A stretch of 17,360 bases of DNA from Tolypothrix carrinoi HA7290-LM1 (GTDB taxonomy: Bacteria; Cyanobacteriota; Cyanobacteriia; Cyanobacteriales; Nostocaceae): contig JAHHIK010000144.1 of assembly GCA_019358935.1 (NCBI GenBank), positions 1-17,360 on the forward strand, given 5' to 3'. Position numbers and translations under genes: made by a program. Positions within the stretch are counted from its first letter, which is position 1. Each line of letters begins with the position of its first letter. Below, piece after piece: positions 153 through 12,875 of this stretch. The notes beneath the pieces were generated by a model that ran no database searches, had not been told where the DNA came from, and saw only the letters and a program-made list of their open reading frames with translations.

Positions 153-218
153 GCGGGAGCAATTGCCATTTCGGGAGTCGCTGAAATAGATTTTCAGAGG
201 GCAATTACTATTTCGGCG
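153..218. repeat. Solo copy of the 63-bp repeat unit found in the 4008-4331 array
   Basis: 65 of 66 bases identical to 4140-4205. Confidence 0.95.
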
Positions 219-329
219 GTTGATTGTCTTTCTTTTGTTGTTATGCAGCAACAAGGTTTAATCGATGCTGTTACATCAGATCAACATTTTATTCAGACGG
301 GTTTTCGAGCTTTATTACTTGAAACTTAG
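213..329 (+). pseudogene. C-terminal remnant of a PIN-domain (VapC-like) toxin
   Basis: SAVDCLSFVVMQQQGLIDAVTSDQHFIQTGFRALL matches the PIN C-terminal pattern S-x-x-D-C-x-SF...T-x-D-x-HF-x-Q-x-GF. The N-terminal part is replaced by the repeat unit. Confidence 0.8.
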
Positions 330-406: not shown

Positions 407-1753
407 TTAGGGATTCAGACGAATTACCCGACTCTCTGCATTTCCATCTACAGTCAACCTATAAATAAAGTTTCCAGGTGTTAAAGTTTCCCCTGCATCA
501 TTCTTACCGTCCCAGGCAACTGATTTTTGACCAGCACTAGGATTACTTTCATCAACCAGTTGGCGAACATAAACACCAAACTGATTCCAAATATCGATTC
601 TGATTTTTTGGGTATTCTCCGGTAACGTATATTCGATAGTAACTGATTTCTCAAACTGCGCTGGCGCATTTGTTGTTAGAAAGCTTAGAGGTGCAACTCT
701 TTCCACTAGAGGAGCTATTACTGGTGCAGCAGAATACTTGTAAACAGTCTTGCCTGAAGCATAACCGACAGTCACGGGATTACCAAAAAATCGGAATCGA
801 TTGATAAATTGTCCGATTTGGTTTGCATCTTCCCAGTTTTTACCCCCATCTTTTGTTTCGCTGCTGAAACCAGTGGGGTCTTGTGGGAAGTTATAGCCCC
901 AGCCACCAACCCAGCCGTGGTTCTCATCAACAAATCCAACCCCTTCAAGATTTACATTCTCTTGAGGATCGTTTATCCGGAGTCTTTTCCAAGTTTTTCC
1001 GCCATCAGTTGTTTTCAGGATTGCACCTTTAGTAAAGTTCTCCAGAGAGACAAAACCAATATTCTCATTCAGGAAAAAGATTTTCCAACCCCATTCTCCT
1101 AGCGGAAAAGAATCACTAATATCGGCGACTCGGTTTACCCAAGTTTTTCCCCCATCTTCTGTATAGAGAACCACTGGAATTACATCATCGCGAGTGGGTT
1201 TGGGAATACTATTGTCAGCTTTGCCACCGACAACCCAACCAAAATCTTCATTAATGAAATAGTTATCAATCAAAATTGTGGCATATTCGCTCATATCCCA
1301 GGCAGTCCAAGTTGTCCCACCATCGACAGTTTTCATCATGCGGGCAGGGATATCAGCAGGATCATTGGTGCCAGAAGCGTAAATGACCGATTCGTTGACC
1401 ACCGAAAGTCCGCAAATCTTTACCGGAGCGTTTTCAGGGAGATTCTCTACAATAGCCCAAGTCTCTCCTCCATCAGTTGTGTGATACAGGCGTTGCTCCT
1501 CAGATACTGTTCCAACCCAACCATTTAAGGGGGTCGAAAAACCAACACACCTCAAATAAACTGGTCGATTGTTAACGATAGGTGTTTGGAATTGCTTCTC
1601 CCAAATATCGCCGCCATCGGTGGTTTTGATAATTTGACCATTACTATTAACTGCCCAACCTACCATCGGATCGATAAACCAAATATCATCAGTTCTCGAA
1701 CTAGCGATCGGTGCATTTGTAGGAAACCATTGTAAGTTTGTAGAATTTGTCAT
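407..1753 (-). CDS. YCF48-like/BNR-repeat beta-propeller protein with a C-terminal FlgD-type Ig domain
   Basis: Repeated F-x-D/N-x-x-x-GW and T-x-DGG-x-TW (Asp-box) motifs. C-terminal IEYTLP...IDIWNQFGVYVRQLV...WDGKNDAG...GNFIYRL is FlgD-Ig-like. AGAGG lies upstream of the ATG. Confidence 0.85.
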   Translation of the reverse strand: MTNSTNLQWFPTNAPIASSRTDDIWFIDPMVGWAVNSNGQIIKTTDGGDIWEKQFQTPIVNNRPVYLRCVGFSTPLNGWVGTVSEEQRLYHTTDGGETWAIVENLPENAPVKICGLSVVNESVIYASGTNDPADIPARMMKTVDGGTTWTAWDMSEYATILIDNYFINEDFGWVVGGKADNSIPKPTRDDVIPVVLYTEDGGKTWVNRVADISDSFPLGEWGWKIFFLNENIGFVSLENFTKGAILKTTDGGKTWKRLRINDPQENVNLEGVGFVDENHGWVGGWGYNFPQDPTGFSSETKDGGKNWEDANQIGQFINRFRFFGNPVTVGYASGKTVYKYSAAPVIAPLVERVAPLSFLTTNAPAQFEKSVTIEYTLPENTQKIRIDIWNQFGVYVRQLVDESNPSAGQKSVAWDGKNDAGETLTPGNFIYRLTVDGNAESRVIRLNP

Positions 1754-1832
1754 GACAAGTATTTCCTCTTACTTATGGATTTGCGGTTTTGGATTATGGA
1801 CTGTACCCAAGAATAAATTCAATATTCTCTTA

Positions 1833-2180
1833 GAGGTTGTTTGAAAAGTGTTTCGCTGTGACTTTAGGCACTTTTAGATCCCCCCTAACCCCCCGCAAAT
1901 TGGGAGGAACCGGAATCAAAGTCCCCCTTTTTAAGGGGAGCCACAGAGGAAGGGGAGGCAGTGCGTTGGGGAGGACACCTGCGTGGGCGGCTTTGCCGAC
2001 TTGAGCAGCGTGTCCGTTGAGGCAGTGCGTTGGACGGGTTTCCCGGCAGACGCGCACCTGCCGTCGGCTCTGCCGACAGACGCGCAACTGCCGTCGGCGA
2101 GCCACTCTTGTTGCACGTGGCGTGGATTTAGAGGGATCTAGAACTTTTGATACCGACAAGAGGACTTTTCAAACATCCTC
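1833..2180. mobile_element. MITE, 348 bp, with IS5/IS1031-like ends and TTA target duplication
   Basis: TIRs GAGGTTGTTTGAAAAGT (1833-1849) and reverse-complement GAGGATGTTTGAAAAGT (2164-2180) match at 16/17. TTA at 1830-1832 and 2181-2183. No transposase. Confidence 0.85.
1938..2123. repeat. Nested cluster of four small GC-rich dispersed repeat elements (GAG...CGT) inside the MITE
   Basis: Outer element 1938-2123 (GAGCCAC...GTGGCGT); second element 1955-2094 (GAGGCAG...CTGCCGT); two inner elements at 1971-2018 and 2019-2064. Confidence 0.75.
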
Positions 2181-2184
2181 TTAA

Positions 2185-3696
2185 TTACTGAGGAAAATTA
2201 TTATCTTTCCACTGATTGAAAAGGCTAATTCTTGCGTCTGTCCAGGGACCTTCGGGAAATCGAGGTGGCATATTTTTGGAGGATACCTGATTTAAAATTT
2301 CATCTGCACTATTCTTCACAGCATTATAATCATCAAGTATGGAACCACGAGGTTTCATATGAGCTATATCCATCGGTGAGAATAATTGGGAAATCCCGTT
2401 TGTCCAAGTTCCTCCATTGGGTTCGAGGGAAATGGTATGGGCGATGTTTTTTAGTGCCGCCGATACTTCTGTTAAAGCTTGCTGCAACTGTTGATATGGT
2501 TCAGTTCTAGAATCGTTAATCAGCGCGTCACACGCTTCGCCAATTTCTTGCAGTCTCTCTTGGAAAAAGATCCAAGCACTGCTCCGATGCGGGAGTAATT
2601 GAACATCTGCATAAACTTCAAAACTCGGTGCTGCATTCATGCCTGGAAATCCCTCACCTACTGGCAATAGAGTAATTGCTTTAGCTAAGGGAGAAACACC
2701 AAAAGGCATAAGATTAATAAACGCGCTCTTGAGAACATACATCTGCTCCTCATTTTCCTCAGTGTGTGCAAAGAAACGCAGGAGTATTTGCAGCATGACT
2801 TCATAAAGGGCAACGAATATCTCGACTACATCCCGGCTCAAGGGATCGGTAATGATATTGGCACCAGGAGTTGTATTATCTTGTTGAAGACTTAACAGTG
2901 GATTTTCAATGACCGGACGAGTAGGTCGAAAATTGCGATCGCTCTGCAATTCTGCTAAATACTCCTCGCGAATTTTTGTGAATTTAGCAAAATGACTGTC
3001 ATCTCTTTGGGCAGGAGAGCCTTCACCCTGTACGATAATCAAATCGATCGCTTTTATTGCTGAATCCAAGTCTTTAACCTGGATCATCTCTTTAAAAATT
3101 CCAGTTGCTTGAGCTTCGAGCGGACCAATAAACAGTTTTTGACCGATAGTTTGAAAGCCTTGGTGGATTAGTCCGTAGAGTTCTCCAATGGTGTTATACT
3201 CAAGTTTTCTAGGAAGTAATGGTTGTGGTAGCGCCGCCAGAAGTCTTAGCAATTCTTCGTCTCTGATTCTCTGACAAAACTGATTCCAAGATGCTTTTTG
3301 TTCCTCAGTATCAAAGTTATTTGGCAATTCAAAACAAATATAGCGATTCAGCGTAGTTTCATTGAAAGGCGCTAGTTTGAATGAGAGTTTTAAAGAAGTA
3401 TAGGTTTTAGCCTGCGGAAAATTCGCACGTCGGAAATATGGCGCTCCTCCTATAGCAGTGAGCAGATTACTAGCTAGTGCTAGATGCAGCATTTCCTGTA
3501 CTGCAATTTCATTAATTTTCCGCCGCCACCTATTAATTTTAGTTAATTGAGCTTGAGAAACTCCCTCATCTGTGGATTCTTTTAAGCTGAAGGCAGTAAA
3601 AAGATACTGGCAAGCAAGGGAATGTTCCAATTCTGCTGCTTGGGAGAGAAGATAAAGTAAATCTTCTCTGGTTCTGACTTGATTGTCTGAACTCAT
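2185..3696 (-). CDS. Ferritin-like protein (VioB/PF12902-type) with a small C-terminal MPP..W domain
   Basis: Motifs AAELEHSLACQYLFTAFSL, IAVQEMLHLALASNLLTAIGG, FELP, TIGELY, QGEG and SHFAKF. I prefer the in-frame ATG at 3696 to the TTG at 3750. Confidence 0.85.
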   Translation of the reverse strand: MSSDNQVRTREDLLYLLSQAAELEHSLACQYLFTAFSLKESTDEGVSQAQLTKINRWRRKINEIAVQEMLHLALASNLLTAIGGAPYFRRANFPQAKTYTSLKLSFKLAPFNETTLNRYICFELPNNFDTEEQKASWNQFCQRIRDEELLRLLAALPQPLLPRKLEYNTIGELYGLIHQGFQTIGQKLFIGPLEAQATGIFKEMIQVKDLDSAIKAIDLIIVQGEGSPAQRDDSHFAKFTKIREEYLAELQSDRNFRPTRPVIENPLLSLQQDNTTPGANIITDPLSRDVVEIFVALYEVMLQILLRFFAHTEENEEQMYVLKSAFINLMPFGVSPLAKAITLLPVGEGFPGMNAAPSFEVYADVQLLPHRSSAWIFFQERLQEIGEACDALINDSRTEPYQQLQQALTEVSAALKNIAHTISLEPNGGTWTNGISQLFSPMDIAHMKPRGSILDDYNAVKNSADEILNQVSSKNMPPRFPEGPWTDARISLFNQWKDNNFPQ

Positions 3697-3813
3697 CTTG
3701 GGTAATAGTTTAAGAAGGTGTTTATCTTGAACGTTAGTAAAATTTAACAAAAAAGCAAAAGTTTTTGAGAAACAATGACGTTGCGTCTTGATTAGACCAT
3801 CTATACTGCTCTA

Positions 3814-4005
3814 AAGACGATTCCAGTGGTCAATTTTTGAATTTTGCGATCGCCTTAGAAGCTTTTTTTTCCTAACTCGATGCCTCCTATCAAACCAGCC
3901 TCAAACACGAAAACCCTTTCCCTGACTCGTTTATCTCCCCCCTGGGTTTTTCCAGTTGTCTCAACTCTGCTGTCCAATTAAGGGATGATTTTGGTTATGA
4001 GGTAG
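3814..4005 (-). promoter_or_regulatory. Copy 2 of a 192-bp duplicated upstream region with a candidate ECF promoter
   Basis: Ungapped alignment to 9607-9798 with about 14 mismatches by manual count. The minus strand ends TTCAAAAATTGACCACTGGAATCGTCTT. Confidence 0.7.
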
Positions 4006-4007
4006 AA

Positions 4008-4331
4008 TTTTCGGCGAGAGCAATTGCTATTTCGGGAGTCGCAGAAATAGATATTGAGACAGCAATTGCTATTTCGGCGAGAGCAATTACCATTTCCGGA
4101 GTCGCTGAAATAGATATTCAGAGAGCAATTACTATTTCGGCGGGAGCAATTGCCATTTCCGGAGTCGCTGAAATAGATTTTCAGAGGGCAATTACTATTT
4201 CGGCGAAAGCAATTGCCATTTCCGGAGTCGCTGAAATAGATATTGAGAGAGCAATTACTATTTCGGCGGGAGCAAAAGCCATTTCCGGAGTCGCTGAAAT
4301 AGATTTTTAGAGGGCAATTACTATTTCGGCG
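4008..4331. repeat. Tandem array of five 63-bp units, each built from three 21-bp subunits, ending in a HIP1 site
   Basis: Units start at 4020, 4083, 4146, 4209 and 4272, consensus GCAATTGCCATTTCCGGAGTC-GCTGAAATAGATATTCAGAGA-GCAATTACTATTTCGGCGGGA. GCGATCGC at 4329-4336. Confidence 0.95.
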
Positions 4332-4382
4332 ATCGCTTGACTTTTAAGACAGTCGCTACGATCATGGGCGATCGGTAATCCT

Positions 4383-5687
4383 CTAATCGTTCATTTGTTT
4401 GACAAAAGTGGAAAATGCATACATATACCCATCGTTACGGTGGATTGATTTGCAATATTTATGGCGCACCGGGCTAACCTTGCCTTTTGGTGTTCTCATT
4501 TCAAAAACTCCGCTTTCTCGAACGGTTAATCTGCCAACATGAGTCCCTGCGAATTTTCCAGATGGAAGAATTGCGCGTACCATCTCACCAGTCTGAAATC
4601 CAAAGAAAGTCTTGCACCGAGTTCTGTGTTTGGTGGGGAAGCCATATTTATTAGGTGTACACATCTGACGGTTCCCCCAACCTTTAGCAGTAATTAACAA
4701 CGGCTGCAATGTTAGAACTTGCAAGCTTTCTACTACCCCCACTGACGCCGCATCTAGCCAGTGAGTTTTAGGAAGTCCAAACCGAACGCGGTTGTACTTT
4801 GTTCTGCCCCCCGTGCCTGTTTCTACTGGCAATCCTGTCTCTTTGAGTTTTCTAGATAATGCCCAACGACTTGAATTTACTGCGGCTACGTCCTTTAACG
4901 GTTGTTTTGCCTGCCTCAAAATACGGGATAGCACATCAGGCTTTTTGGCTAGAAAATCTTTAATATCTCTATTACCCTTGGCTTGGTTACATGAATGGCA
5001 AGCAAGAGTGAGGTTAGAAACGCGATCGCTACCCCCTTTTGATTTCGGGTAAATGTGTTCTACCTCAAAAGGCACGTTTTCAGCACCACAGTAAGCGCAC
5101 TTTCTGCTCCATTTCTCAAGCAAATATTCCCTGACTTCATAGCCTGCAAGTTCACCCCGCTGATATTCCTTGCCTGATATTTCCGGATTTTGCATTGCTT
5201 GGAGGTCAAATTTAACTAACTCTTGAGATATCCCTGTAATCGGGACATATCGAGTTATTCGCCTTACCCAAGTAAGGATATTTTCAACCCTAGATTCTAA
5301 ACTTGGTGGCAACCATCCTTCTTTTCGAGTACGGTTCAAAAAACGCGGTTTGCGGTAACGGGTTTTGCGATTACGACGGTTGCGACGAATAGCACAACGA
5401 GATTCTAAATCATTCTTGATTTGCTGTCCTCGGTGGATCAACTCAGCACCCCAAATAACTTTATCATCCTGCACAATCGCCAACCCAGTAGTCTTAGAGC
5501 CTGGGTCAATCTTTAGTTGACGGGGCTGTGTTTTGGGATCAAAAACTGCGTATTTTAATATGATTGTGAATGGGTAGCGCCGATACACCGCAGCTTGTTG
5601 TAAATTCAACAGTCGTCTTGCTTGCCCTGGATGGACTGGACTTAACGGTTGTTTATTGGTATCAAGCACGAATACAAAGTTAGACAT
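4383..5687 (-). CDS. iscB: IscB RNA-guided endonuclease (IS200/IS605 OMEGA; PLMP/RRXRR, split RuvC, HNH)
   Basis: N-terminal VFVLD...PLSP; RuvC-I IDPGSKTTG; Arg-rich bridge helix RRNRRNRKTRYRKPRF; RuvC-II QELVKFD; HNH CAYC...EHIYPKSKGGSD...NL...CHSCN; RuvC-III HWLDA; terminal DGYMY. GAGGA RBS upstream. Confidence 0.95.
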   Translation of the reverse strand: MSNFVFVLDTNKQPLSPVHPGQARRLLNLQQAAVYRRYPFTIILKYAVFDPKTQPRQLKIDPGSKTTGLAIVQDDKVIWGAELIHRGQQIKNDLESRCAIRRNRRNRKTRYRKPRFLNRTRKEGWLPPSLESRVENILTWVRRITRYVPITGISQELVKFDLQAMQNPEISGKEYQRGELAGYEVREYLLEKWSRKCAYCGAENVPFEVEHIYPKSKGGSDRVSNLTLACHSCNQAKGNRDIKDFLAKKPDVLSRILRQAKQPLKDVAAVNSSRWALSRKLKETGLPVETGTGGRTKYNRVRFGLPKTHWLDAASVGVVESLQVLTLQPLLITAKGWGNRQMCTPNKYGFPTKHRTRCKTFFGFQTGEMVRAILPSGKFAGTHVGRLTVRESGVFEMRTPKGKVSPVRHKYCKSIHRNDGYMYAFSTFVKQMND

Positions 5688-5689
5688 TT

Positions 5690-5950
5690 TGTCCTCTGAT
5701 TTCTCAGGTTATGTTTTCCTCTCCCAAAGGGAGACGCTTCGCGAACGCCAATGTTAAAAAGGCTTGTTGGGATTAACTCACTTCCTTAGCTAAATACGGA
5801 TGTTTAAAGTTAATCGACAGAGCTAAAAGCTGGAAAGCACTCTTAGGTGTCTTGACCTTCTTAACGTAGCCATTTAAGGCTTAGGAACTGGCTATCTGTC
5901 CAGTAAGAGGGCTGGTTATCCAACCCTGTCCACTGTTTAGCGGATAGCAC
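5690..5950 (-). ncRNA. omegaRNA (HEARO-type) scaffold for IscB
   Basis: Non-coding 260 nt directly 5' of iscB. HEARO-like words appear in order: CCAG..CTAAG, CTACGTT, GACACC, GTGC..CCAGC..CTCTG, TAAACA, AACATTGGCG..AGG.AAACATAACC. Long 5' hairpin at 5891-5948. Ends are approximate. Confidence 0.8.
5721..5745. repeat. 25-bp small dispersed repeat inserted in the omegaRNA
   Basis: Minus-strand TTCGCGAAGCGTCTCCCTTTGGGAG splits the motif AACATTGGCG|AGGAAAACATAACC and contains two mini-palindromes. Confidence 0.6.
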
Positions 5951-5999
5951 TAAGTCAATAAATCAAGGTGCGTTACGCTACGAAAGCTGAGACCAAAGC

Positions 6000-7655
6000 C
6001 TATTGGGAGTACCTTCTTGTTGGTAACTCAACAGGAGCAGAAACAGTTATGGATTGCACCACCTTTTCAACAGGGCTGACTTCTGCCATTGCTGGTACGG
6101 TAGGAACTGTAGTTCTACTAAGTGTACCTGGTGAAACAACCCTCAACAAACCATAGGCGGCAGGACCGTGAGAGCCATCAGATTTTGTCAGGAGGATAGA
6201 ACGATTACCTAATGGGGCATCAGAGGCAGCAGTGATGGTAAGGATAAAAATTTGTGCGCCTTGTATGTCCTGAAACCCAGTTTTTTCAACGGTAATTCCT
6301 GTTCCACCAGTAACCTCAATAGAAGTATTGCGATCGCTATCAAATGCCTCAAGTCCCACATTCTGAACCGTAGTTCCTTGTTCGATCTGCATATTCAGAC
6401 CAGAACGCTCTGCTACTGCCAACATCTCCGATTCTCTCAATATATACGGTCGGGGTAACGGCTTGGTTGCATTACCTGCACAAAGAAATGATTCTGAAGC
6501 GGTCACTTGAGGTAAGCCCCAACCCGCAAGAACAATGTTGAAGGTTTGGGTAATCTGTGATCCGAATTCAATATTTGCTGTCCCGATTCTAATATCGCCA
6601 ACCGTAAAACCAAGCTCTTCAGGCACTTCGTACACTGCATGGATAATGTAATCCATCCGTTCACCACCCTGACGCTGACGACCCCGAATCACCTTCCAAT
6701 AGTCTGATGGTCGAGCATCTGAGGGCGCATTTGAGGGCAGTCGATACGTACCAAAATTAGGCGTTTGAATGTAAAGACCAACTGGATTTTCGAGAGAAAT
6801 CCGTAAGCCAGATTTAGGTTCTCCAGTTCCAAGTACTAATTCATTAACCGTTGCTCCAATGGTAGGATCGCTGTTACGGTTTGCGGTACCATAACGACTG
6901 CAATTAATCAGCGCGTTTTGGTCTGTAATCGGATTACCATTTGTATCTTTACGAAGGACAGTTGCTTGTCCGGCGAGAAATATCTGGGCACTGAGCGTGT
7001 TGGGGTTGCTAATCAGGTGAACAGCCCCGTTAGTTGTTGTGCTATTCCAAGGATTGCGATCGTCATAAGCTGGTCGTCCCGTTGCCGGATCAACGACCAA
7101 ATTGCCCTGGCTATCTCGCAGGTAAAGATCCTCAAGCTTGACCTGTGAACCAACTAATTGTTGATAAAGACGCAACACAACATTCGGATCAATATCCCAC
7201 AATGTATACCAATACTCTCGATTCTCACAGGTAAACATTACTTTGGTGATCTTGCCTTCTGCATTACGGGTAACGCTCCATTCGCAATACTCATCTTGCC
7301 AACCCCGTGGACCAGACGGGGTATAGTTATCAGCAGCTGGCGGGCCCTCATCAGCATATTGCCATTGAGTACGCTGTCCTACACTGGGATACCGAATTAA
7401 GATTCGATTAGGAAATGCTGTCCATGGGATAGGTACGCCTTCTATTCCAACAGGAATATCAGTATTAAGCGGGTTGTAATACTGGGTCAGTGGTGGCTGA
7501 TTCTCTGAACTCCACGGATCGTTTTGTAGGGTCTGTTCCGTAAACCGATTTATGTTGTCATTCCAGCGAGTACGGAATGCTTTTTCTTTTTCTTCTTCGC
7601 CGGGATGAAAATCGTTTTGGTTGGCTGGTGGGTCAAATTGAGGTAGTTTAGGCAT
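6000..7655 (-). CDS. Conserved hypothetical protein (QDEYCEW motif) with a probable C-terminal Ig-like domain
   Basis: 551-aa ORF with AAGGA RBS. Trp-rich core W-x-AFP, QDEYCEWSV, FTCENREYW, NSDP-x-IG. Beta-rich tail ITAASDAPLGNRSILLT. Function not recognised. Confidence 0.8.
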   Translation of the reverse strand: MPKLPQFDPPANQNDFHPGEEEKEKAFRTRWNDNINRFTEQTLQNDPWSSENQPPLTQYYNPLNTDIPVGIEGVPIPWTAFPNRILIRYPSVGQRTQWQYADEGPPAADNYTPSGPRGWQDEYCEWSVTRNAEGKITKVMFTCENREYWYTLWDIDPNVVLRLYQQLVGSQVKLEDLYLRDSQGNLVVDPATGRPAYDDRNPWNSTTTNGAVHLISNPNTLSAQIFLAGQATVLRKDTNGNPITDQNALINCSRYGTANRNSDPTIGATVNELVLGTGEPKSGLRISLENPVGLYIQTPNFGTYRLPSNAPSDARPSDYWKVIRGRQRQGGERMDYIIHAVYEVPEELGFTVGDIRIGTANIEFGSQITQTFNIVLAGWGLPQVTASESFLCAGNATKPLPRPYILRESEMLAVAERSGLNMQIEQGTTVQNVGLEAFDSDRNTSIEVTGGTGITVEKTGFQDIQGAQIFILTITAASDAPLGNRSILLTKSDGSHGPAAYGLLRVVSPGTLSRTTVPTVPAMAEVSPVEKVVQSITVSAPVELPTRRYSQ

Positions 7656-7699
7656 CTTTTTTTCCTTATATTTGGGGAAGTTTTTCTTTGAATATTTCC

Positions 7700-9550
7700 C
7701 TAGGGGGATATGTCTGTCTGGGGTAGTAATAGACTAAATTCGTTCAAATTACGAATTTTGGGCCAGGATTGAAACTGATCCCGACGCTTCACACTTAATC
7801 TCATCAGTCGATCTAACTTACCCTGATCAGTCATCGTCTGAAATTCATTTAAATAAGACTGAATTTGCATTTGGACAACGTTTTTCCACTGATCGTCGCG
7901 AAGATCCCACGTTTTGAGAAACTGTTGTTCAGCAGTACATTGGTCGAAGTTATTTTCATCGCAGGTCGGCTGACCACCAGCGGCGTTTCTGACTTTAGCA
8001 GCAAAGTCGGTCGGGACACTACTAACTCCACTCGTAATCGTACCAGTGGAAATCTGATCAGCATATTTTTGTAGGCTAGATCGCTTTTCAGAGAAGACTG
8101 GATTTTTAAAGTCCACCATCAGTACAGCAGCGATAAATTTCTCGGTCATAATATTTTTAGACCGCATCTCTGCCAGCATAAAAAGGTCTTCTGCCGCTGG
8201 AACTGGTATGAAGAACGAAAAGTGGGTTGAGCCTTTTTGTTCATAAAGCGGAGAACCATCCGGCTTAGTAAAGTCAGACTGAACTAATTTGAAGTTGTGT
8301 GTATTGAGGTAATTGTCATAATCTTGTCGCTTGAAAGCGATCGCTGGAATATTATATGTGAGACCCAATGCTTTTCTAAGTGCTGAATCCCACAGGAAAA
8401 AATCAGAAGGAATACCAGAAATATCCCTGTTTAGTGGGCTAGTATTGGCTCCATTGCTTTGAATCTGAGTTGAAGTCAGATTAACAGTTGTGTTGGTGAT
8501 AATGTGGCGCAACATCTGGTTGACATCGCTAAGTTGAGTGATGTCTCCCTCAGTTTTCAAGCGATCTGTCAACCAATTTTTATAATACATGTGGAAGCCA
8601 TCATTAACAGCCTTCTCCAAATTCTCAGCGCCATTTCTACGCTGAAAGAATGTTTCTTGGGCTACAGCTAATGGCACAACCAGTGGTGAAATTCTTGTCA
8701 ATTGAGAGTGCCAATTGTTCCATGGGATGTCTAGTTCTTTCATAATCACCACACCGTTGTGGTGACAGTCAAAACATCCATGCCCCATACTTGGTTCTGT
8801 TTGTGCCATTGCAGAATCCCCCGCCCAACTCCAAACTTTAGTAGGGGCTGAGGCACTGCTGGTTTCTCCTACTTGTTGTCCAAATTGGTACTTGCTGGTT
8901 CCTCCTACTTGTTCTCGAAATTCGTAAAAGTTGTATTTATTAGCCTTGCCGTTCCATGCGATCACTTGCAGAAAGCTAGAGTTTCCACCGGGTGCTGCAC
9001 TCAGGAAAATTTGATCCTCGGTTATGTTTAGTCCCCAAGTGATAACATAGCGAAGATTACGGGGTTCCTCACGAGAAGCAATCGTAGTTGGAATTTGGCT
9101 GCCTTCCCCAACTAGGAAACTCGCTTGTTGTAGTTGTAGTCCACTACCTGAAATCGCAGTAGAAATGGCATCGACACTATCTGGAAAAGATCCTTTGCGG
9201 AGAATCTCAGTCGCAAATGGATCGTCAAGATTTGTGGTAATATCGTCATCCGTCATGGGTGTGACACATTGATCTATCCCAGCAATGTGACGATAAATTT
9301 TGCCACCAACCACTGGCTCACAGTTTGGCTCTGACATGCTAGAGAAGCGCATTCCTTCAGGACTACCCAAAAACCTGGGGTGAGTTACTCTTAGATAACT
9401 GCGCAATCGGAAATCTCCTGTCGGAAATTGTGCGTGTTCAGCAGCAATCGCATGATTCTGGAATATGTCAGATAGCAGGCATGAGCCGCCTAACAAAAAG
9501 ATGAGTAAAACTAAAAGAGTACCAAATTTTGCGAAACCAAGCCTGGGCAT
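7700..9550 (-). CDS. Exported protein with one CxxCH motif (putative mono-heme c-type cytochrome domain)
   Basis: 616 aa. Basic plus hydrophobic N-terminus (MPRLGFAKFGTLLVLLIFLLGGSC...AIA). GCFDCHHNG followed by MKEL..PWNNW. AGGA RBS. Confidence 0.75.
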   Translation of the reverse strand: MPRLGFAKFGTLLVLLIFLLGGSCLLSDIFQNHAIAAEHAQFPTGDFRLRSYLRVTHPRFLGSPEGMRFSSMSEPNCEPVVGGKIYRHIAGIDQCVTPMTDDDITTNLDDPFATEILRKGSFPDSVDAISTAISGSGLQLQQASFLVGEGSQIPTTIASREEPRNLRYVITWGLNITEDQIFLSAAPGGNSSFLQVIAWNGKANKYNFYEFREQVGGTSKYQFGQQVGETSSASAPTKVWSWAGDSAMAQTEPSMGHGCFDCHHNGVVIMKELDIPWNNWHSQLTRISPLVVPLAVAQETFFQRRNGAENLEKAVNDGFHMYYKNWLTDRLKTEGDITQLSDVNQMLRHIITNTTVNLTSTQIQSNGANTSPLNRDISGIPSDFFLWDSALRKALGLTYNIPAIAFKRQDYDNYLNTHNFKLVQSDFTKPDGSPLYEQKGSTHFSFFIPVPAAEDLFMLAEMRSKNIMTEKFIAAVLMVDFKNPVFSEKRSSLQKYADQISTGTITSGVSSVPTDFAAKVRNAAGGQPTCDENNFDQCTAEQQFLKTWDLRDDQWKNVVQMQIQSYLNEFQTMTDQGKLDRLMRLSVKRRDQFQSWPKIRNLNEFSLLLPQTDISP

Positions 9551-9606
9551 TATTCTTGTTCCTATGAGTAAGAGTAACCTCTTTGCAACAGAATGATTCC
9601 AGTTAT

Positions 9607-9798
9607 AAGACGATTCCAGTGGTCAATTTCTGAATTTTGCGATCGCCTTACAAGCTTTTGTTGCCTAACTCGATGCCTCCTATCAAACCAGCCTCAAACA
9701 CGAAAACCCTTTCCCTGCCTCGTTTACCTCCCCCCTGGATTTTTCCAATCATCTCAATTCTGCTGTACAATCAAGGGATGATTTTGGTTATGAAGTAG
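9607..9798 (-). promoter_or_regulatory. Copy 1 of the 192-bp duplicated upstream region with a candidate ECF promoter
   Basis: About 93% identical to 3814-4005. Overlaps the last codons of the sigma gene. The minus strand ends TTCAGAAATTGACCACTGGAATCGTCTT. Confidence 0.7.
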
Positions 9799-10771
9799 CC
9801 TCCTGTCTTACCCAATTGATGACAGTGTTGTGGCTAACCCCAGTTTCCCGCCCGATCGCTCGATATCCCATCCCATCGGCATACAGCTTGAGGCAATGCT
9901 CCCGCACCTTTGAGGGATAGCGTTTGGAAGAATAGGAATTGATAAACTGGCGATCGCATTTTTTGCAGACGTAATTTTGCTTCCCTTTTTTGTGACCATT
10001 TTTACATATGTGCGTAGACTGACAATAGAGACATTGCATCCCTCGATTGTGCAAAGCTTCACCACCAGCCTTTGCTTGAGTTAAGCAAGTTGGCGGCAAC
10101 CTTTGTTGTATCTCTTTGTTTAAATTAGCCTTTGTTGGTTTCTGCTTTTTTATCGATGGGAGGGGAATTTCTAAGAAGGCAGAATCATCCTCTTCTAAAA
10201 GATACTTGTTCATCTGCTGTTTCAGAATTGCTCGTGCCTGTGAAATCCTTTTATAGACGTTATCTATGGAAATACCGAGTTTTTGGGCAATATCTAGGTA
10301 AGACATATCTTGCTCAAAACGCATAATAAAAGGCGATCGCAGTCGGGGAGGCAGTGCCTTAATAGCACAGCGGATGTTTATTTCTATCTCACTGTCGAGA
10401 ATGGCTGATTCAGATGACTCAACTGGAAACGTTACAACTTCTACTTGCCCAGCTATTTCTTCAAAATTATCTGTCCCTATTGCCCTTCTGCCCGGGTCTC
10501 GGTGTATGTCCATACAAACATTATGAGTAAAGCGCGTCAGCCAAGCTTTAAGATTAGTGATTTTGTCAGCATAGTGGGGTAATTTATCCCAGGCTTTGAG
10601 AGTCGCTTGAGAGAGGGCATCTTGGGCATCTGTAACATTTCCATCCATCCAAGTTAAACAGCAATGATAAAGATAATCTTGGTATGGCATCCATAGTTGC
10701 CAAAAAAAAGTGTAATCTCTTTGAGATAAGCTTTTTAATAGAAACTTTTTATCTGATGGTGATGCTTGCAT
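9788..10771 (-). CDS. ECF-type sigma-70 factor fused to a C-terminal IS1 InsA-like zinc-ribbon + HTH domain
   Basis: Region 2: DAQDALSQATLKAW...KAWLTRFTHNVCMD. Region 4: LPPRLR...SYLDIAQKLGISIDNVYKRISQAR. From 10039: MQCLYC...KNG...GKQNYVCKKCDRQF...GMGYRAIGRETGVSHNTVINWVR. Confidence 0.9.
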   Translation of the reverse strand: MQASPSDKKFLLKSLSQRDYTFFWQLWMPYQDYLYHCCLTWMDGNVTDAQDALSQATLKAWDKLPHYADKITNLKAWLTRFTHNVCMDIHRDPGRRAIGTDNFEEIAGQVEVVTFPVESSESAILDSEIEINIRCAIKALPPRLRSPFIMRFEQDMSYLDIAQKLGISIDNVYKRISQARAILKQQMNKYLLEEDDSAFLEIPLPSIKKQKPTKANLNKEIQQRLPPTCLTQAKAGGEALHNRGMQCLYCQSTHICKNGHKKGKQNYVCKKCDRQFINSYSSKRYPSKVREHCLKLYADGMGYRAIGRETGVSHNTVINWVRQEATS

Positions 10772-11070: not shown

Positions 11071-12150
11071 TTATCGATGTTTTGATTGTTTTAGCATTTG
11101 CGTCAGTCTATCTAGCAATAGAACTTCACGCTTGCTGTCTTCCAGTGTCCGCGCTAGTATGATTGCTCTTTCATAAAAATTGCGAGCGGTGGGATAGTTA
11201 CCTAGTTGCTCGTACAATAAAGCATAAGACTCAAAAGATTTTAATTTCTCGCCTAAATTTTCTGATTCTGTAGCCAGTGTTAAACGCTGTTCTAGTAAGT
11301 CGAAAGCGCGTTCATATCTTCCTACAGAACGGTGAGCTGTAACTAAACCGTCAATTGCTCGTAATTCGTTGGTGCGATCGCGTGTAACTTTTGCGATTCG
11401 CAGTGCTGAACCATATGTACCAATAGTATCTTGATAATTGCCGGCAGCTAGGTAAGCATCGCCTAAATTATTCAAGGTATTCGCTTCGGCGATCGCATCC
11501 GGTGTTCGACGCCGGAAAATTAAAGCAGTTTCCAACAGCTTAATTGCTTTGTTATAATCTCCTAGCCTGACTGTCGCTAAACCCAGATTACTTAAAGACA
11601 GTCCTTGTCCTTCAATATTTTTGACTTCGCGGGCTATTGAAGCTGCTTCTGTAAAGGTTTCAGCCGCTGCGGTGAATTCTCCTTTTTGCAGTAGTAACGT
11701 GCCAATGTTATTTAGTCCAAAAATCTGTCCTTGAAAGTCTTGAGTATCACGGGCGATCGCTAACCGACGACGCATTGGATCTTCAGCTTCTTTTAATCGA
11801 TTCAGCTGCACGTAACCTCTACCAATTAAATCGTAAACTAAACCTTGCGCCTTTAAGTCGCCAATCAAATGATAAATATTCAGTGCTTGTAACCAAGACT
11901 CAATTGCTTTATCGGATTTTCCTGAGGCTAATTGTTGTTCACCTTGACGCACCAACATATCAGCCTCGTCTCTTGATTCTCGCGCTGCTGAATGGTTTAA
12001 AGGACGATGGAGTTGTTGAGTAATATCTACCGCACCCGCTGCCATTGGATTCAGCAAAACAGTCAACAGTAAAGATGTGACAGCACAAAATTTAGATTTT
12101 AGCAATAGCCTATCAGAAAAATTATTTAAAAAAAAATGCTTTTGCTTCAT
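11071..12150 (-). CDS. Tetratricopeptide-repeat protein, probably exported
   Basis: Repeated LNNLG/LSNLG...G-x-Y-x-x-A motifs and a hydrophobic N-terminal segment. Start uncertain (ATG 12150 or TTG 12195). Confidence 0.85.
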   Translation of the reverse strand: MKQKHFFLNNFSDRLLLKSKFCAVTSLLLTVLLNPMAAGAVDITQQLHRPLNHSAARESRDEADMLVRQGEQQLASGKSDKAIESWLQALNIYHLIGDLKAQGLVYDLIGRGYVQLNRLKEAEDPMRRRLAIARDTQDFQGQIFGLNNIGTLLLQKGEFTAAAETFTEAASIAREVKNIEGQGLSLSNLGLATVRLGDYNKAIKLLETALIFRRRTPDAIAEANTLNNLGDAYLAAGNYQDTIGTYGSALRIAKVTRDRTNELRAIDGLVTAHRSVGRYERAFDLLEQRLTLATESENLGEKLKSFESYALLYEQLGNYPTARNFYERAIILARTLEDSKREVLLLDRLTQMLKQSKHR

Positions 12151-12233
12151 AAAGATTAGCCGTAAATTTACGGTCTTAAATAAAAGAATTTGCAACCATT
12201 TTTTAGTTTTTTAGAGAACACATAGTATTAGCG

Positions 12234-12875
12234 TTAATACTTAAGTTCCGATTGAGGTAAATCTTCACCCAAGTAGATGGCGCGGACATCAGCAGGTAAT
12301 TTGTCCTCTAGCATAAGATAGCCTTCCTGGAGAAAATTGGCTACTTCTGCTGGAGCGATCGCTTCACCTTCAGCTTGCAGGTAAGCAGCAATGCGAGTTT
12401 CGCTCCAGTGAAAGGTTTGAGCCATTAAAACCATCAATCGCAAAACTGGGGGCATTTGTTCCAAAGCTTGTTCGATATAACACCATAAAGGTGGTGAAGT
12501 TGCTTGCAGAGAATAATGAATTGCTTCTGTGGGTGGTAATTCAAGATCGTTGATACAAAAAGCCGTCATATTGATCAGCCAATTTTGCAAAGTTAAAGTT
12601 TCTTTGCTTGATTCAGGGTTGGTTAAATCAAGTCCACCGAGTTCGTAGTATATATGTCGCCAAGTGAGAGCAAATAGGTAATCTGCTTGTACAGGCGATC
12701 GCGCTGAATGGCGAATTAACGTGTACACTATCGGGCTATAACGGCAAAACATCGCCGTAAAGTATTTTCCAGCTTCCGGATGGGACTGAAATAAATCCAA
12801 AAGTTCCTGATCGCTGTAATGAAACAGCGATTTAACTAGCGGGTGATTAGCTTCGGGGAAATGTGGTATTTGCAC
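12234..12875 (-). CDS. Conserved cyanobacterial sigma-70-like (region 2/4) protein
   Basis: F...RYSPIVY...QADYLFALTW and ALEQMPPVLRLMVLM...WSETRIAAYL resemble degenerate sigma regions 2 and 4. GTG start. Confidence 0.7.
   Translation of the reverse strand: MQIPHFPEANHPLVKSLFHYSDQELLDLFQSHPEAGKYFTAMFCRYSPIVYTLIRHSARSPVQADYLFALTWRHIYYELGGLDLTNPESSKETLTLQNWLINMTAFCINDLELPPTEAIHYSLQATSPPLWCYIEQALEQMPPVLRLMVLMAQTFHWSETRIAAYLQAEGEAIAPAEVANFLQEGYLMLEDKLPADVRAIYLGEDLPQSELKY

Follow-up and report, generated by a model that had tools for sequence, protein, structure and literature searches.

The 17,360-nt contig JAHHIK010000144.1 of the cyanobacterium Tolypothrix carrinoi HA7290-LM1 (hereafter the window, that is, the whole stretch of DNA analysed, and the entire contig C144 of a 7.96-Mb assembly, GCA_019358935.1) carries a gene for an extracytoplasmic function (ECF)-type sigma factor and two copies of a 192-bp leader, each ahead of a pair of genes. 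We propose, at a probability of roughly 0.55, that the leader copies are target promoters of this sigma factor and that each heads a separately conserved pair: a predicted heme enzyme with its partner, the QDEYCEW protein, in one cassette, and a predicted di-iron oxidase with a propeller protein in the other.

Open reading frame (ORF) calling on the window confirms the five co-oriented genes reported in an earlier note on this DNA, all on the minus strand and encoding proteins of 327, 616, 551, 521 and 448 aa. Read along that strand, the order is sigma gene, leader, 616-aa gene, 551-aa (QDEYCEW) gene, IscB gene, 63-bp repeats, leader, ferritin-like gene, propeller gene and a final 63-bp repeat. 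The earlier inventory was therefore correct for the five genes but missed a sixth co-oriented one, IscB, which lies with its HEARO RNA and the 63-bp repeats between the two pairs.

The sigma gene and its duplicated leader

The 327-aa protein (positions 9788..10771, minus strand) matches PF04542, PF08281 and TIGR02937 above cut-off and contains sigma regions 2 and 4 without region 3, which places it among the ECF sigma factors. A profile search finds an IS1 InsA-like region, with zinc ribbon and helix-turn-helix (HTH), at its C-terminus. From these matches and its orthologues, it is the likely driver of the array. Leader copy 1 (9607..9798, minus strand) starts inside the final codons of the sigma gene and is 93% identical to copy 2 (3814..4005, minus strand), just as the earlier note had described a near-identical repeat upstream of both pairs. 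This similarity is far beyond chance, and the two copies are the only ones in the 7.96-Mb genome. By repeat and motif comparison, each copy contains a bipartite core (9607-9640 and 3814-3847) made of AAAAATTCAGAAA, a variable 13-nt spacer and TCGTCT, after which similarity stops; we predict it to be an ECF promoter.

We searched for the leader DNA in 300 genomes of the same order, scoring two candidates per genome, and detected it in 16. All 16 carry the sigma family, compared to 74 of the 300 genomes overall (kin are not independent), and in 12 of them the leader lies 0.4-6.5 kb downstream of the sigma gene in the same orientation. In genome G194, whose sigma orthologue is 88% identical and which has no match to pair 1, the same leader is found 3' of the sigma gene, with three full copies and additional fragments all placed ahead of unrelated genes. 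The fetched loci hold 29 core copies across 15 genomes, in tandem (2-4 copies) in nine of these. An ORF starts 32-98 nt downstream of the core in 17 of the 29 copies and is present inside 250 nt in 18. According to Pfam, the cargo is unrelated (beta/gamma-crystallin, patatin, lipoxygenase, M35 and S8 proteases, Vps62 proteins), and 8 of the 18 leader-headed ORFs have no Pfam match. The leader was not detected upstream of the ferritin-like orthologues in genomes G154 and G051, and its core was not found in the other pair loci scanned. The leader thus travels with the sigma family, not with the oxidase genes.

At ECF promoters, a conserved -35 block is typically followed some 16 nt later by a -10 box that contains CGT. 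The bipartite motif linked to the sigma gene has the form of an ECF target promoter, with blocks that resemble such -35 and -10 boxes. We consider the leader likely to be the target promoter of the adjacent sigma factor, duplicated ahead of new cargo. Given the link between the sigma family and the upstream region that both pairs share, local co-regulation of both cassettes is a reasonable prediction, and the sigma factor would probably turn on both. A scan for sigma-70 promoters and for terminators returned chance-level counts (15 vs 20.2 and 9 vs 9.6, respectively).

The 192-bp element could instead be a recombination or duplication scar, such as an IS1-derived end or a cassette site, with the pairs merely deposited beside the sigma gene. 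Leader copies in G194 do accompany duplicated pieces of the sigma gene's 3' end, the InsA tail is IS1-like, 63-bp repeats occur at the unit ends, and insertions of IscB and of a reverse transcriptase (RT) indicate a mobile hotspot. We nevertheless find this account unlikely, since the two conserved blocks with a free spacer, the end of similarity at TCGTCT, the ORF at 32-98 nt in most copies and the co-orientation with sigma in 12 genomes are all promoter-fitting. A role as scar and a role as promoter are not mutually exclusive.

Five loci (L226, L228, L229, L231, L232) contain near-identical leaders with no ORF of at least 45 aa behind them; these could head small RNAs or short peptides. Two of the Vps62 proteins behind leaders (L235:1659-3101 and L245:261-1439) show weak, sub-cut-off matches to ETX/MTX2 and Toxin_10.

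Two gene pairs and their partners

The first gene of pair 1 (7700..9550, minus strand) encodes a 616-aa protein with a signal peptide, the motif C259-x-x-C262-H263 and M270, predicted to be a c-type heme protein. It has no family in local Pfam or NCBIfam and 1150 relatives at the 50%-cluster level. In an alignment of 309 sequences, partly redundant, His263 is kept in 309, Met270 in 305 and CxxCH in 208, while homologues lacking CxxCH mostly have PFDSH or CFDSH instead. A signal-like hydrophobic N-terminus, assigned by a crude hydropathy rule, is present in 133 of 158 CxxCH members versus 0 of 66 members lacking the cysteines. Covalent heme attachment takes place outside the cytoplasm, so this association is expected if CxxCH attaches heme covalently. 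With its conserved histidine within CxxCH, the exported protein has the sequence hallmark of a c-type cytochrome. The family would probably bind heme via His263, the heme being attached covalently in exported members but not in those without a signal. Among the latter, sequences P0278-P0334 often have conserved N-termini reading FPTRxYPYR or RRRATAW.

The predicted 616-aa model (pLDDT 91.9) places beta-strands before the single CxxCH. Searched whole, it has no Foldseek match at E<=0.001 in PDB or BFVD, and against VIA it gives N-terminal-helix rows only, none at Z>=5. This lack of a match does not prove a new fold. We rejected an identity as cytochrome P460/c'-beta: none of the 50 members scanned matches PF16694 or any other Pfam family, and the hhalign profile comparison gives 6%.

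The second gene (6000..7655, minus strand) encodes the 551-aa QDEYCEW protein, which consists of a core with conserved acidic and aromatic residues (~1-395) and an optional C-terminal IPT/TIG domain (397-510) and has no signal peptide. It has no match in local Pfam or NCBIfam, and its homologues bear the precomputed label PF26676. The predicted model (pLDDT 91.5), searched whole, matches within residues 397-510 alone, best to the EBF3 IPT/TIG domain (Z 8.2, root-mean-square deviation 2.5, 87 aligned). W31, W78, W126, Y123, Y148, D121, E122, E125 and E144 are invariant among homologues, C124 is kept in 101 of 120, and the family has accessory lectin or immunoglobulin-like (Ig) domains.

To examine the neighbourhood of pair 1, we scanned GTDB with the 616-aa alignment, confirming 192 stretches and retrieving 75 loci from the best 80. 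These loci span Cyanobacteria, Myxococcota, Planctomycetota, Acidobacteriota, Proteobacteria, Chloroflexota and Actinomycetota. The 551-aa gene accompanies the 616-aa family in 73 of the 75, and in both exceptions the contig ends within 0.7 kb. The two proteins are also fused in seven listed representatives and on one Azospirillum plasmid; a further fusion (P0361) is recorded from the fungus Funneliformis geosporum.

Starting from the QDEYCEW gene, the partner varies. Among the best 80 of 474 metagenome loci, many of them short, the partner is the 616-aa family in 22, a second CxxCH family in 51 and DyP in none, with seven loci cut by the contig end; partners were called within 800 nt, and 3 of the 73 partnered loci fall outside this rule and were added by inspection. 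The 13 cyanobacterial cases comprise seven with the 616-aa family, none with the second CxxCH family, five with DyP and one at a contig end. For plasmids, eight of 30 matches were inspected (four 616-aa family, one second CxxCH family, three DyP). The QDEYCEW gene is thus a near-constant neighbour of a likely heme protein from one of three families. The second CxxCH family has the motif in 33 of 33 aligned members and no match in Pfam or PDB, and profile comparison detects no homology between the two CxxCH families (6%). Probably exported and with a C-terminal CxxCH, it is seen at L006:5513-7258, L030:8064-9671 and L209:8706-10214 besides the 51 metagenome loci. In Paracoccus denitrificans PD1222 it forms an operon with a tyrosinase and QDEYCEW.

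Given this pairing, we have high confidence that the QDEYCEW protein would be functionally coupled to the oxidant, either dealing with what the oxidant produces or being modified by the oxidant itself. A panel of redox neighbours, drawn from the same 75 loci without background control, has at least one member in 27 of them (galactose-oxidase-like proteins in 9, HalD in 6, tyrosinase in 5, LodA/LodB in 4, DyP in 2, and others). PF12902 and tyrosinase genes are reported beside lodA-like genes in one study (PMC4417212). Because of these neighbours and this oxidase-gene context, we favour peroxidase-type heme chemistry: the chances are about even that the 616-aa protein would perform peroxidase-type oxidation using H2O2 from the galactose-oxidase-like or LodA-type oxidases that neighbour many homologues. 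The output of the cassettes would then be oxidative chemistry for antagonism or cross-linking and not a violacein-type pathway.

Alternatively, the 616-aa protein may be an electron-transfer or ligand-binding cytochrome, for nitric oxide or heme storage, with QDEYCEW an independent, co-regulated hydrolase or scaffold and no peroxidase chemistry involved. The conserved Met270 could serve as sixth ligand, and the many invariant Glu, Asp, Trp and Tyr residues of QDEYCEW, together with its lectin and Ig accessory domains, recall carbohydrate-active enzymes. However, DyP, a known peroxidase family, fills the partner slot in eight inspected loci outside the 75-locus set, and the 616-aa family lacks the P460/c'-beta homology mentioned above, which leaves this option with a low probability.

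Several observations speak against our proposal of a sigma-driven array that includes an oxidising heme enzyme. In the leader set, 11 of the 29 core copies have no ORF of at least 45 aa inside 250 nt, no core copy accompanies the sigma paralogue on contig C50 even when up to seven mismatches are allowed, and in the related locus L001 an RT/IscB insertion lies between sigma gene and leader. As for pair 1, 48 of the 75 loci have no panel redox neighbour, with the panel's origin in the same uncontrolled set applying here too, and no H2O2-generating oxidase is present in the window. A signal-like segment occurs in 0 of 120 QDEYCEW homologues, whereas the 616-aa partner has one here; because only the latter carries a signal, the two proteins may not meet, and among the fusions examined only P0250 puts both parts behind a signal. 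Finally, CxxC in exported 616-aa members could form a disulfide.

At six loci (L012, L015, L031, L033, L035, L037) a HalD halogenase stands beside pair 1, mostly with a heme-oxygenase-like di-iron enzyme. Some of these loci add a methyltransferase, EamA or arginase, and some contain what we take to be an amidinotransferase-like gene; they may represent an unassigned biosynthetic cluster.

Pair 2 begins with the ferritin-like gene (2185..3750, minus strand). Because 23 of the 24 closest homologues begin at the ATG at 3696, its 521-aa ORF probably starts there. The protein scores 137 bits against PF12902 (gathering score 22.3), and E42, H43, E86, H89, E141, E243 and H253 are kept in at least 98% of 121 ferritin-like sequences, the Glu/His set expected for a predicted di-iron site. 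A phmmer search finds no solved homologue. Going by Pfam accessions and source names, many homologues appear to carry a fused CDGSH or Rieske Fe-S domain. The label 'VioB-like' holds for the ferritin-like domain only: we rejected full VioB, for which TIGR04492 gives 102 bits against a cut-off of 1250 over model positions 580-947 of 1003. There is, as the earlier note stated, no tryptophan oxidase among the nine window proteins scanned, other window ORFs being judged by eye.

The 448-aa propeller protein (407..1753, minus strand) combines a YCF48/BNR-type propeller with a FlgD Ig domain (Pfam). Its gene adjoins the ferritin-like gene in five of six other cyanobacterial genomes, and the two are fused on two rhizobial plasmids; ferritin-like and YCF48 genes are a separately conserved pair. 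By sequence, pair 2 would encode a ferritin-like oxidase, predicted to be a di-iron enzyme, and its propeller partner, both co-activated by the adjacent sigma factor.

Within the ferritin-like gene, window positions 2188-2412 encode a ~75-aa domain ending MPP...W...F..W with no family match; elsewhere it is fused to ferritin-like proteins, tyrosinases or propellers, or is free-standing (L006, L048, L089, L218, L219). At L214/L216, L217, L218 and L208, a small LodA_C-motif protein, a radical SAM protein and a flavin adenine dinucleotide (FAD) monooxygenase are found beside ferritin-like or propeller genes, a recurrent cassette that resembles quinohemoprotein maturation systems.

The two pairs seldom meet. 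Within ~10-kb flanks of the 75 loci of the 616-aa family, a ferritin-like gene is found in three by phmmer and four by hidden Markov model (HMM), a propeller in one and sigma-InsA in one; the 80 metagenome loci of the 551-aa family contain no ferritin-like gene and no propeller. The neighbourhoods therefore bear out the mutual linkage of the 616- and 551-aa families (73/75), but not the recurrent linkage to PF12902, YCF48-like or sigma-InsA genes for which the earlier note had proposed to look. In the 300 same-order genomes, the propeller occurs in six, the 616-aa family in seven and the 551-aa family in 13 (12 before inspection of G216), and no other physical linkage between the pairs is seen. 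Locus L001 holds pair 1 and the 63-bp repeats without pair 2. All four families do co-occur in other genomes, as had been anticipated, lying inside ~12 kb in L048 and on B. barranii plasmid pBb323S2c. A 1312-aa protein (P0392/P0281; one lineage, more than one source) fuses ferritin, His-heme and QDEYCEW parts, and on a Nostoc UHCC 0302 plasmid a 90%-identical ferritin-like gene runs in the same direction as QDEYCEW-DyP.

The earlier proposal that the sigma factor and all four genes form a single conserved heme/di-iron pathway, producing or detoxifying one product, could appeal to these meetings and to QDEYCEW being held by three of six propeller-bearing genomes versus 13 of 300 overall (kin not independent), but it is improbable given the rarity of ferritin-like, propeller and sigma-InsA genes at the 75 and 80 loci, the absence of physical linkage elsewhere in 300 genomes and the restriction of the triple fusion to one lineage of a different, signal-less subfamily. 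The cluster is no single conserved five-gene pathway, and mapping it to a named one failed here as it had before. The pairs are shared toolkit parts and not a fixed operon, meeting occasionally in oxidase-rich islands with LodA, tyrosinase or galactose oxidase.

Mobile elements, flanking genes and transcripts

The closest named locus is L001, from [Scytonema hofmanni] UTEX 2349, with a DNA identity of 91-97%. The RNA-guided endonuclease IscB (4383..5687, minus strand; NF040563, 472 bits against a cut-off of 175) is a strain-level insertion separating the pairs, and its HEARO (omega) RNA (5708..5948, minus strand) is a passenger. IscB is absent from the corresponding place in L001, and a contig from RNA run X8 joins 4066 directly to 5943, the IscB-less arrangement. 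The flank on the RNA side shares 97% identity with a copy on contig C42, which suggests that the element moved recently. Five 63-bp tandem repeats end cassette 1 (4009..4331) and a single extra copy ends cassette 2 (153..231). They recur in the G194 array and, in L001, 3' of the QDEYCEW gene; no convincing ORF was found in them.

Upstream, co-oriented and syntenic in L001, are genes for a second sigma-region-4-like protein (12234-12875) and a tetratricopeptide repeat (TPR) protein (11071-12195); the sigma paralogue on contig C50 likewise precedes an apparent TPR protein. In run X8, contigs of a ~97%-alike relative cover the 551- and 616-aa genes, one crossing their junction; none covers the ferritin-like or sigma gene, to which we attach no weight. 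Contigs of the biocrust runs X2 and X11 cover the sigma gene and pair 1 only, and in X1, which may be the source sample, the depth is even across the five genes with no contig spanning the repeats.

Sequence searches against solved structures found no significant match for the 551-aa, 616-aa, second CxxCH and ferritin-like proteins, and the ESM Atlas gave unnamed clusters or TIG only. There is no viral homologue and no PHROG match. PADLOC returned no matches for the four cargo proteins and a weak HTH match only for the sigma factor.

Implications and comparison with known systems

A bolder extension, which we regard as doubtful at present, is that QDEYCEW proteins (PF26676) are a new enzyme class activated or served, for example via a new protein-derived Trp/Tyr cofactor, by an interchangeable heme oxidant, which could be a His/CxxCH protein with a new fold, a member of the second CxxCH family or DyP, and are deployed from integron-like ECF-promoter arrays. 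If true, some DyP peroxidases, a family whose natural functions are still mostly open, would have QDEYCEW as their physiological partner, and filamentous cyanobacteria would deploy it and other antagonism proteins from arrays that grow by ECF promoter duplication behind their own sigma gene.

Two leads result from this work. The first is a widespread family almost always beside a likely heme protein, including DyP. One of these partners, a predicted heme protein of 60 kDa, is modelled with confidence and has no solved-fold match in these searches, and natural fusions and the P. denitrificans operon make the QDEYCEW system tractable. The second is a candidate ECF promoter, present in 29 natural copies and apparently duplicated so that new genes are recruited into a cyanobacterial regulon. 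Such promoter duplication would be a simple mechanism of regulon growth and offers a route for mining co-regulated antagonism genes.

Compared to ECF sigma factors that control adjacent promoters, this one likewise has regions 2 and 4 only and a nearby bipartite motif ending CGTC at ECF-like spacing; unlike them, the promoter-like leader is tandemly duplicated with exchangeable cargo, the sigma factor has an InsA-like tail and no anti-sigma factor was identified. Cytochrome P460/c'-beta proteins share with the 616-aa model the beta-strands ahead of a single CxxCH, but profile comparison is negative, at 6% for this family and 12-15% for the second one, with CxxCH alone aligned. The iminophenyl-pyruvate dimer synthases VioB, RebD and StaD share the PF12902 domain with the ferritin-like protein, which does not match the first ~580 residues of the VioB model; VioB-type clusters also differ in that no vioA-type gene is among the nine proteins scanned from the window, itself a whole contig.

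LodA/GoxA-associated clusters place PF12902 and tyrosinase genes near lodA/lodB-like genes, and both pairs have homologues in clusters of this kind. They differ from the window, which has no lodA or lodB, and the accessible part of the report does not describe His-heme, QDEYCEW or a sigma/leader array (PMC4417212). The maturation systems MauG/pre-MADH, LodB/LodA and QHNDH likewise set an oxidising heme or flavin protein beside a Trp/Tyr/Cys/Asp-rich partner, and propellers, Ig domains, radical SAM proteins and FAD monooxygenases lie nearby in related islands. In contrast to those systems, to which a generic IPT/TIG domain is the only match in sequence or fold, one CxxCH is present instead of two, and three partner families alternate. 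Our literature search, whose scope excluded subscription journals and supplements and was not aimed specifically at the promoter array, found no paper on the arrangement or on any of these families. The heme-partner rule thus appears to be undescribed, as does the tandem promoter array, while ECF-controlled neighbours and LodA-type islands are of known kinds.

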